Shown here: positions 1 to 267 of the stretch, piece after piece
Position numbering within the stretch: position 1 is the stretch's first letter
How the letters are laid out: every line of letters starts with the position of its first letter
IMG/VR virus record: IMGVR_UViG_2734482571_000005
DNA from: a virus
Taxonomy: Duplodnaviria > Heunggongvirae > Uroviricota > Caudoviricetes
Strand: one strand, 5' to 3'
DNA length: 4,664 nt
The notes under the pieces: model-generated
Seen by the model: the letters and a program-made list of their open reading frames with translations, nothing else
Database searches by the model: none
Told to the model about the DNA's origin: nothing
Position numbers and translations under genes: made by a program

Positions 1-35
1 GAACAGGAGGGACAGCTGATAGAAACAGAAGCCAC
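1..35 (-). CDS. insA: IS1 InsA, N-terminal fragment only (5' partial in window; gene runs off the left edge)
   Basis: GTG start at 35-33 on the minus strand followed by GCT TCT GTT TCT ATC AGC TGT CCC TCC TGT, i.e. (M)ASVSISCPSC, which matches the recalled InsA N-terminus (zinc-finger CPSC motif). Confidence 0.75.
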   Translation of the reverse strand, partial: MASVSISCPSC

Positions 36-67
36 TGGAGCACCTCAAAAACACCATCATACACTAA

Positions 68-90
68 ATCAGTAAGTTGGCAGCATCACC
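68..90. repeat. IS1 left terminal inverted repeat (IRL, about 23 bp); outer end of the element at position 90
   Basis: Minus-strand sequence from 90 downward begins GGTGATGCTGCCAACTTACTGAT, the canonical IS1 terminus. Established knowledge places the insA promoter and IHF site in this end of IS1. Confidence 0.8.
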
Positions 91-200
91 GTTTTAACGT
101 TACTAATAAATCGTGAAACAATCTCCTCATTTGTTAGTATTTTCGCCTGAGCACAGCAAGAGGTTAATATTGCAACCGTCATTAAAAATGGCTTTATCAC
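91..200 (-). pseudogene. Possible 5' fragment of a small lipoprotein-like ORF interrupted by the IS1 end (speculative)
   Basis: Minus strand has GGAG (212-209), an 8-nt spacer, then GTG at 200-198 (alternative ATG at 182-180). The frame reads (M)IKPFLMTVAILTSCCAQAKILTNEEIVSRFISNVK and runs directly into IS1 at 90/91, terminating at an in-frame TGA inside the IS. It has a positively charged N-terminus, a hydrophobic core and an LTSC lipobox-like motif. Too short for the ORF track. The segment is visibly AT-rich compared with the tail genes. Confidence 0.25.
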
Positions 201-267
201 AAAACAAACTCCATTGTTAGCATGTTACGCGATAATTTTGCCTCATCTTTCACCACAAAAAAAGAAC

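Follow-up and report, generated by a model that had tools for sequence, protein, structure and literature searches.

The tail module of the Stx2e phage phiP27 (NC_003356), comprising L44-L57, runs from sheath, tube, chaperone and tape-measure genes through DNA-circularization, baseplate and fibre genes, with 15 bp separating the tape-measure gene from the DNA-circularization gene. The tail genes of phage Mu (L-M-Y-T-N-P-Q-V-W-R, or Mup39-48) follow the same plan, with sheath, tube, frameshifted chaperone, tape measure, DNA_circ_N and Gp44-48-like families in succession. IS1 is a 768-bp element with 23-bp inverted repeats that duplicates 8-9 bp of its target; for Shigella sonnei, Hawkey et al. 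2020 (PMC7373316) describe an expansion of IS elements and assign a burst of about 45 IS1 insertions to the branch that precedes the last shared ancestor of lineages II and III. The accessory genes known as morons, as defined for lambdoid phages, are inserted among conserved late genes and are recognized by presence or absence between otherwise colinear phages, deviant base composition, and a promoter and terminator of their own. Here we analyze a stretch of 4,664 nucleotides (the window) in which elements of these four systems can be compared.

Our results indicate that the window very probably records a complete, simple insertion of IS1 into an accessory gene of a phiP27-like S. sonnei prophage remnant with an HK97-type head and a Mu-type contractile tail, and that no flanking DNA was lost in the process. 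The coordinates of the features are collected in Table 1. The window ends inside IS1, and what we conclude about the DNA beyond base 1 rests on genomes that are identical to it over the window. Exact look-up of the tape-measure protein led to closed chromosomes of 4.8-4.96 Mb, four of which (L003, L004, L005 and L010) are 100% identical to the window on either side of a run of N; in L003, used below for coordinates, window 1-3745 corresponds to 12217-8473 and window 4044-4664 to 8223-7603, at 100%. Published papers identify CP014099 as S. sonnei FDAARGOS_90, CP022672 as S. sonnei 866, CP180280 as S. sonnei 201809330 (Lineage 1) and CP179990 as S. sonnei 830292 (Lineage 2.3). The exact tape-measure protein is indexed in 2042 blocks, and for 1875 of these the longest contig that carries it measures no more than 2-5 kb. 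The window is thus probably a contig from short reads, broken at the IS1 and IS600 repeats.

Table 1. Features of the window, with coordinates in window positions
Feature	Position	Strand	Remarks
IS1 left end	1..90	-	IRL 90-68; insA GTG start 35-33, from where insA runs leftward past the window edge; positions taken from the sequence
Chimeric 43-aa ORF	69..200	-	36 native codons, then VMLPTY-stop from the IS1 end; from ORF listing and translation
Target-site duplication, 9 bp, one copy	91..99	.	GTTTTAACG in the window, CGTTAAAAC on the gene strand
Accessory gene, 5' fragment	91..200	-	first 36 codons and a further 2 nt of a gene of 160 codons; intact in L001, L002 and L007
True spacer, tape-measure stop to accessory gene start	201..267	-	67 bp; GGAG ribosome-binding motif at 212-209
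Tail tape-measure gene, intact, 649 aa	268..2217	-	PF10145 (PhageMin_Tail); 96.7% DNA identity to phiP27 L47
Tail assembly chaperone, 111 aa	2302..2637	-	PF10109
Tail tube, 118 aa	2637..2993	-	PF10618
Tail sheath, 498 aa in the real sequence	2993..4538	-	PF04984, PF17481, PF17482; holds the N run
IS600 right end	4558..4664	-	100% identity to annotated IS600; transposase stop 4601-4603; 19 bp upstream of the sheath start codon

Of the sequenced phages, phiP27 comes closest, with 96.7% identity over window 277-3740; its sheath, tube, chaperone and tape-measure genes share this level of identity, and the gene order is alike through the DNA-circularization, baseplate and fibre genes. SfV, SfII and SfI match the sheath/tube region only, at about 78%. 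In loci L003-L012, Pfam assignment of called genes places the sheath-to-fibre genes in a single orientation, as in a phiP27-like tail. Two differences set the S. sonnei element apart from phiP27: it carries a low-GC insert of about 600 bp where phiP27 has 15 bp and no accessory gene, and it is riddled with copies of IS1, IS4 and IS600. The order and Pfam families of the Mu tail genes are likewise conserved, and the annotation of vB_EcoM-720R4, a related phage isolate, uses Mup names, but the head and early regions are unlike those of Mu, being HK97-type and lambdoid in prophages of the S. sonnei type, which also have an extra gene between the equivalents of T and N. Within the chaperone gene, a perfect slippery heptamer (T TTT TTT, window 2374-2368) precedes a -1 frame that extends to about 2214, overlapping the tape-measure ATG, and that reads YPVGDGKHLRKRLYNVAWFWKLNPLELRRGAVSQFTELEAEAVRINEEMKHG (YPVGDGKHL...EEMKHG-stop) in three-frame translation. 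Judged from its sequence, this is the classic arrangement for programmed -1 frameshifting, here putative, which is reportedly typical of tail assembly chaperones (Xu et al. 2004). In the window the sheath ORF looks as if it were divided and shifted in frame, because the 298 N at 3746-4043 outnumber the 249 real bases for which they stand (L003 8224-8472); the real gene is an intact ORF of 498 codons.

The first 90 bases of the window, which an earlier note on this DNA had read as an IS1 end with insA directed outward, are indeed the left end of the element, matching annotated IS1A and IS1B at 90/90 bases (100% identity, E = 2e-39), with hits to at least 5000 plasmid records. Its left inverted repeat (IRL) reads GGTGATGCTGCCAACTTACTGAT. 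The full copy lies outside the window (L003 12128-12895), measures 768 bp and contains insA, an open insB' frame and, at element position 307, the A6C motif for -1 frameshifting (AAAAAAC). All eight occupied loci (L003-L006 and L008-L011) have this copy, intact and identical; they are independent and mostly closed chromosomes that share the exact 70-bp sequence across the junction of element and target, where GTAACGTTAAAAC meets GGTGATGCTGCC. In each of the eight, CGTTAAAAC stands on both flanks of IS1, and past the second copy the split small gene resumes with ATCTGCAGATAATGACG. The inverted repeat and near-identity, the insA/A6C/insB' organisation over 768 bp and a direct target duplication of 8-9 bp, here 9 bp, by which the IS1 family is recognized, are thus all present. 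Empty sites with a single copy of the 9-mer occur in a Lineage 1 S. sonnei genome (L007) and in two E. coli prophages (L001 and L002). Alignment with L002 across the element shows a 9-bp overlap and zero loss, L003 12127 corresponding to L002 20001 and L003 12896 to L002 20009, and IS1 with its duplication sets the tape-measure and baseplate genes 777 bp further apart. The junction is absent from all 5,426 complete E. coli genomes searched; an exact 45-bp junction search also returned no match in a collection of genome contigs, presumably because that collection has one genome per species, with Shigella filed under E. coli. The chimeric ORF formed at the junction is called as a gene on only two draft-genome contigs, and it proved unsuitable for counting genomes with the occupied allele, since gene callers seldom call it.

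Downstream of the tape-measure stop (268-270, closing the minus-strand ORF 268-2217), the earlier note had described an AT-rich stretch of 177 bp, and window 91-267 does show 34.5% GC, versus 52% in the tape-measure gene. Only the 67 bp adjoining the tape-measure gene are a spacer; the part next to IS1 is the 5' end of a 160-codon gene, whose interruption by IS1 the note had missed. Uninterrupted relatives in complete E. coli genomes are 96-99.9% identical, with all matches starting at window 91, and the intact gene is catalogued in RefSeq as WP_000594909.1, a 160-aa hypothetical protein encoded on the tape-measure strand 67 bp past the tape-measure stop (L001 19628-20110; L002 likewise). The gene is also intact in the Lineage 1 S. 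sonnei genome (L007 12018-12500). Its GTG start maps to window 200 and IS1 splits it after codon 36, leaving a product that is little more than a signal peptide. Together with its surroundings it makes up the insert of about 600 bp (L007 11942-12542), and its GC content is 36.9% versus 52-55% in the neighbouring genes. A terminator-like hairpin with a T7 run follows its stop codon (L007 12506-12535; fold -14 kcal/mol, z = -3.4), and a consensus scan of the equivalent L007 region found no sigma-70-like promoter. Of 5,426 complete E. coli genomes, 11 have the gene, and in each of these it is intact. Among the 30 best E. coli relatives it is carried by 11 and missing from 19, and the 15-bp arrangement of phiP27 is likewise found in 19 of the 30.

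The encoded protein matches PHROG 5586, a family with no assigned function, over its full length (9.7e-89). Homologues are few, nine being retrieved by a word-indexed search and 19 by an exhaustive profile search of 1.84 billion cluster representatives, and those in a Yersinia enterocolitica prophage and in phage vB_EcoM-720R4 occupy the same slot between the tape-measure and DNA-circularization genes. This rare family is always found in that slot, in phiP27-type myoviruses of Escherichia, Shigella and Yersinia (for example at L007 12018-12500, L015 5001-5459 and L017 4001-4489). All aligned members have an N-terminal signal peptide; the lipobox pattern [LVI][ASTVI][GAS]C fits LTSC in Shigella and LISC in Yersinia, and other members show an ordinary signal peptide (…NSFA/KP) in its place. 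Cys150 is invariant in the family alignment, and C57 (Shigella numbering) is conserved in most members. Searches of Pfam, NCBIfam and PADLOC gave no match to the protein, nor did a sequence search against solved structures (PDB), and the model that AlphaFold2 built from an alignment of eight family sequences, with mean pLDDT 40.8, was not good enough to be compared with known folds. A cadherin-like or bacterial-Ig repeat fold was considered on the basis of short, weak profile matches to giant proteins and set aside as too thin for a fold assignment.

The best reading of these features is that the interrupted gene encodes a putative exported accessory (moron) protein. It resembles lambdoid morons in its presence or absence among near-identical prophages, its low GC content, the terminator-like hairpin that follows it and its predicted exported product, and differs from them in that the consensus scan detected no promoter of its own. 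IS1 has destroyed this small gene for a predicted exported protein. One could speculate that the protein works in the cell envelope of lysogens, where it might exclude superinfecting phages or mask a receptor, and that its knockout by IS1 in epidemiologically successful S. sonnei lineages, together with a later deletion in strain 866, altered phage susceptibility or surface antigenicity and was not neutral decay; we consider this very unlikely. The genome paper on strain 866 remarks on the unusual susceptibility of that strain to phages.

Beyond IS1, the occupied loci continue with genes for a DNA_circ_N (Mu gpN-like) protein, a GpP-like protein, Gp45, GP46, Baseplate_J, Gp48, a tail fibre and fibre assembly. 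The statement in the earlier note that no baseplate genes follow reflects the boundary of the window and nothing else: nothing follows probably because a short-read contig breaks 90 bases into IS1, as it does 107 bases into IS600 at the other end, and baseplate genes come after IS1 in every junction-bearing genome examined. More generally, when a contig or window stops within a repeat, it tells nothing of the DNA that lies further on.

IS1 favours AT-rich targets, and its insertions are polar on the downstream genes of an operon. IS1 transposed here into the AT-rich, low-GC gene that has the tape-measure gene on one side and the Mu gpN-like DNA-circularization gene on the other, duplicated 9 bp of target (CGTTAAAAC) and cut the 160-codon gene after codon 36. 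The established biology of IS1 suggests that the insertion would be polar on the late genes downstream. It arrived in an element that was already dead.

With respect to the genome from which the window derives, a later recombination between this IS1 and another copy, either the inverted one 4.4 kb away in the baseplate J gene or a distant one, could have placed different DNA past base 1. The far side of IS1 lies outside the window, and PMC7373316 and PMC12795559 report hundreds of IS copies and frequent IS-flanked inversions in S. sonnei; an IS4-flanked rearrangement is in fact visible beside the prophage, where IS4 is adjoined by bamD in L003 and by the portal gene in L007. Both IS1 copies nonetheless keep matched duplications (CGTTAAAAC and GGGGGCGCA) in all loci checked, which indicates that no exchange or inversion has taken place between them there, and no variant of this sort was seen among the examined loci. 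We regard such a rearrangement in the source genome as decidedly unlikely.

The earlier note had left open whether IS1 mediated an insertion or a deletion, suggesting that an adjacent deletion or rearrangement removed or displaced the tail-completion, baseplate and fibre genes. Within the window nothing is seen after the IS1 end, and Shigella genomes do undergo IS-mediated deletions, with losses apparent here at IS600 and, in strain 866, at IS5. The insertion is confirmed, but the deletion reading fails because the target-site duplication is present at both ends of IS1 in 8/8 loci and the distal tail genes are in place: the matching 9-bp repeat CGTTAAAAC, which the note itself had proposed to look for at the far end as the mark of a simple insertion, is there; the locus is colinear with the intact prophage L002 across IS1; and circularization, baseplate and fibre genes lie directly beyond the element in every locus. 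A deletion caused by this IS1 is accordingly refuted in every genome examined and highly improbable for the source genome of the window. That the IS1 sequence is an assembly artefact, a repeat k-mer wrongly joined to the contig end, verges on the negligible, for although both window ends stop about 100 bases into repeats (IS1 and IS600), as is typical of short-read contig ends, the exact 70-bp junction recurs in eight independent, mostly closed chromosomes. Simple insertion of IS1 without loss of flanking DNA is the reading that we retain in what follows.

The prophage is a remnant, and it is defective for reasons other than this IS1. The earlier note was right to suspect a defective prophage, but not in its picture of a sheath-tube-chaperone-tape-measure remnant produced by IS1, as the defects sit elsewhere, at IS600, at an IS1 in the baseplate J gene and at an IS4 in the portal gene. 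IS600, of the IS3 family, spans L003 6449-7709, and homology to L002 jumps across it from 24418 to 27928, so that 3.5 kb (L002 24419-27927) are missing, including most of the prohead protease gene and the genes for the major capsid, connector, head-closure, tail-terminator and DUF2635 proteins. The IS-linked deletion that the earlier note had sought is thus found at IS600, at the opposite edge of the window. A second IS1, inverted and 4.4 kb from the first, splits the baseplate J gene (L003 17314-18082) with a duplication of its own (GGGGGCGCA) in all S. sonnei loci, including that of Lineage 1, and IS4 splits the portal gene. With the capsid, connector and tail-terminator genes lost and the portal and baseplate J genes split, the element is not a complete, potentially inducible genome. 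A domesticated, tailocin-like tail is ruled out by the deletion of the tail terminator and the splitting of baseplate J by IS1 in all loci.

The Lineage 1 locus, where the IS1 site studied here is empty, shows the IS600-linked loss, the IS1 in baseplate J and the IS4 in the portal gene as well, and because these other lesions are shared with Lineage 1 the prophage was already dead before the studied IS1 arrived. In most S. sonnei loci, clpB, yfiH, rluD and bamD adjoin the portal-splitting IS4 (L003 1-4640); the Lineage 1 genome instead retains HNH and terminase sequences at that place, the latter with another IS1, as well as the 5' part of the portal gene (L007 1-4640). An IS4-flanked inversion has been published for lineages 2 and 3 (PMC12795559), and the difference between L003 and L007 on the IS4 side probably corresponds to it.

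The IS1 site is empty in Lineage 1 (L007) and occupied in Lineage 2.3 and in seven genomes without lineage typing. On the basis of a single typed genome from each of lineages 1 and 2, the insertion most likely dates to the burst of IS1 transposition on the branch to lineages II and III, and the site may serve as a lineage-informative marker (empty in Lineage 1, occupied in Lineage 2.3). The insertion is the same in kind as those of the documented S. sonnei IS1 expansion in its element length, inverted repeats, duplication, AT-rich target, inactivation of a gene and lineage pattern; this particular site was not found named in the accessible part of PMC7373316. We view it as a routine case of IS expansion and prophage decay in S. 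sonnei, present in public closed genomes and already known in kind.

Two variants indicate that the site is not uniform across the species. In strain 866 (L012 12085-13280), an IS5 preceded by CTAA lies 43 bp upstream of where IS1 sits in other strains, and is accompanied by a 448-bp deletion (L007 12085-12532) that takes the rest of the small gene, the terminator and the IS1 site and reaches almost to the start of the DNA-circularization gene. The IS5 event may have erased a pre-existing IS1; its interpretation as an independent second hit, indicative of a hotspot or of selection, was considered unproven, as the deletion spans the IS1 site and could have removed an earlier IS1. In a draft genome from 2012 (L022, AKNC01000076.1, 4881-6424), two IS1 copies stand in tandem, separated by the 8-bp sequence TACATCGG, and the CGTTAAAAC duplication brackets the whole; a genuine IS1 dimer and a misassembly are both conceivable. 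The most similar uninterrupted copy of the prophage, at 99.9%, is that of FDAARGOS_944 (L001, labelled E. coli), where it lies beside an ipaHe pseudogene. ISEc60 is inserted there in the sheath and portal genes (23955-25251 and 29732-31025), from which it follows that the same type of prophage has decayed independently through a different IS.
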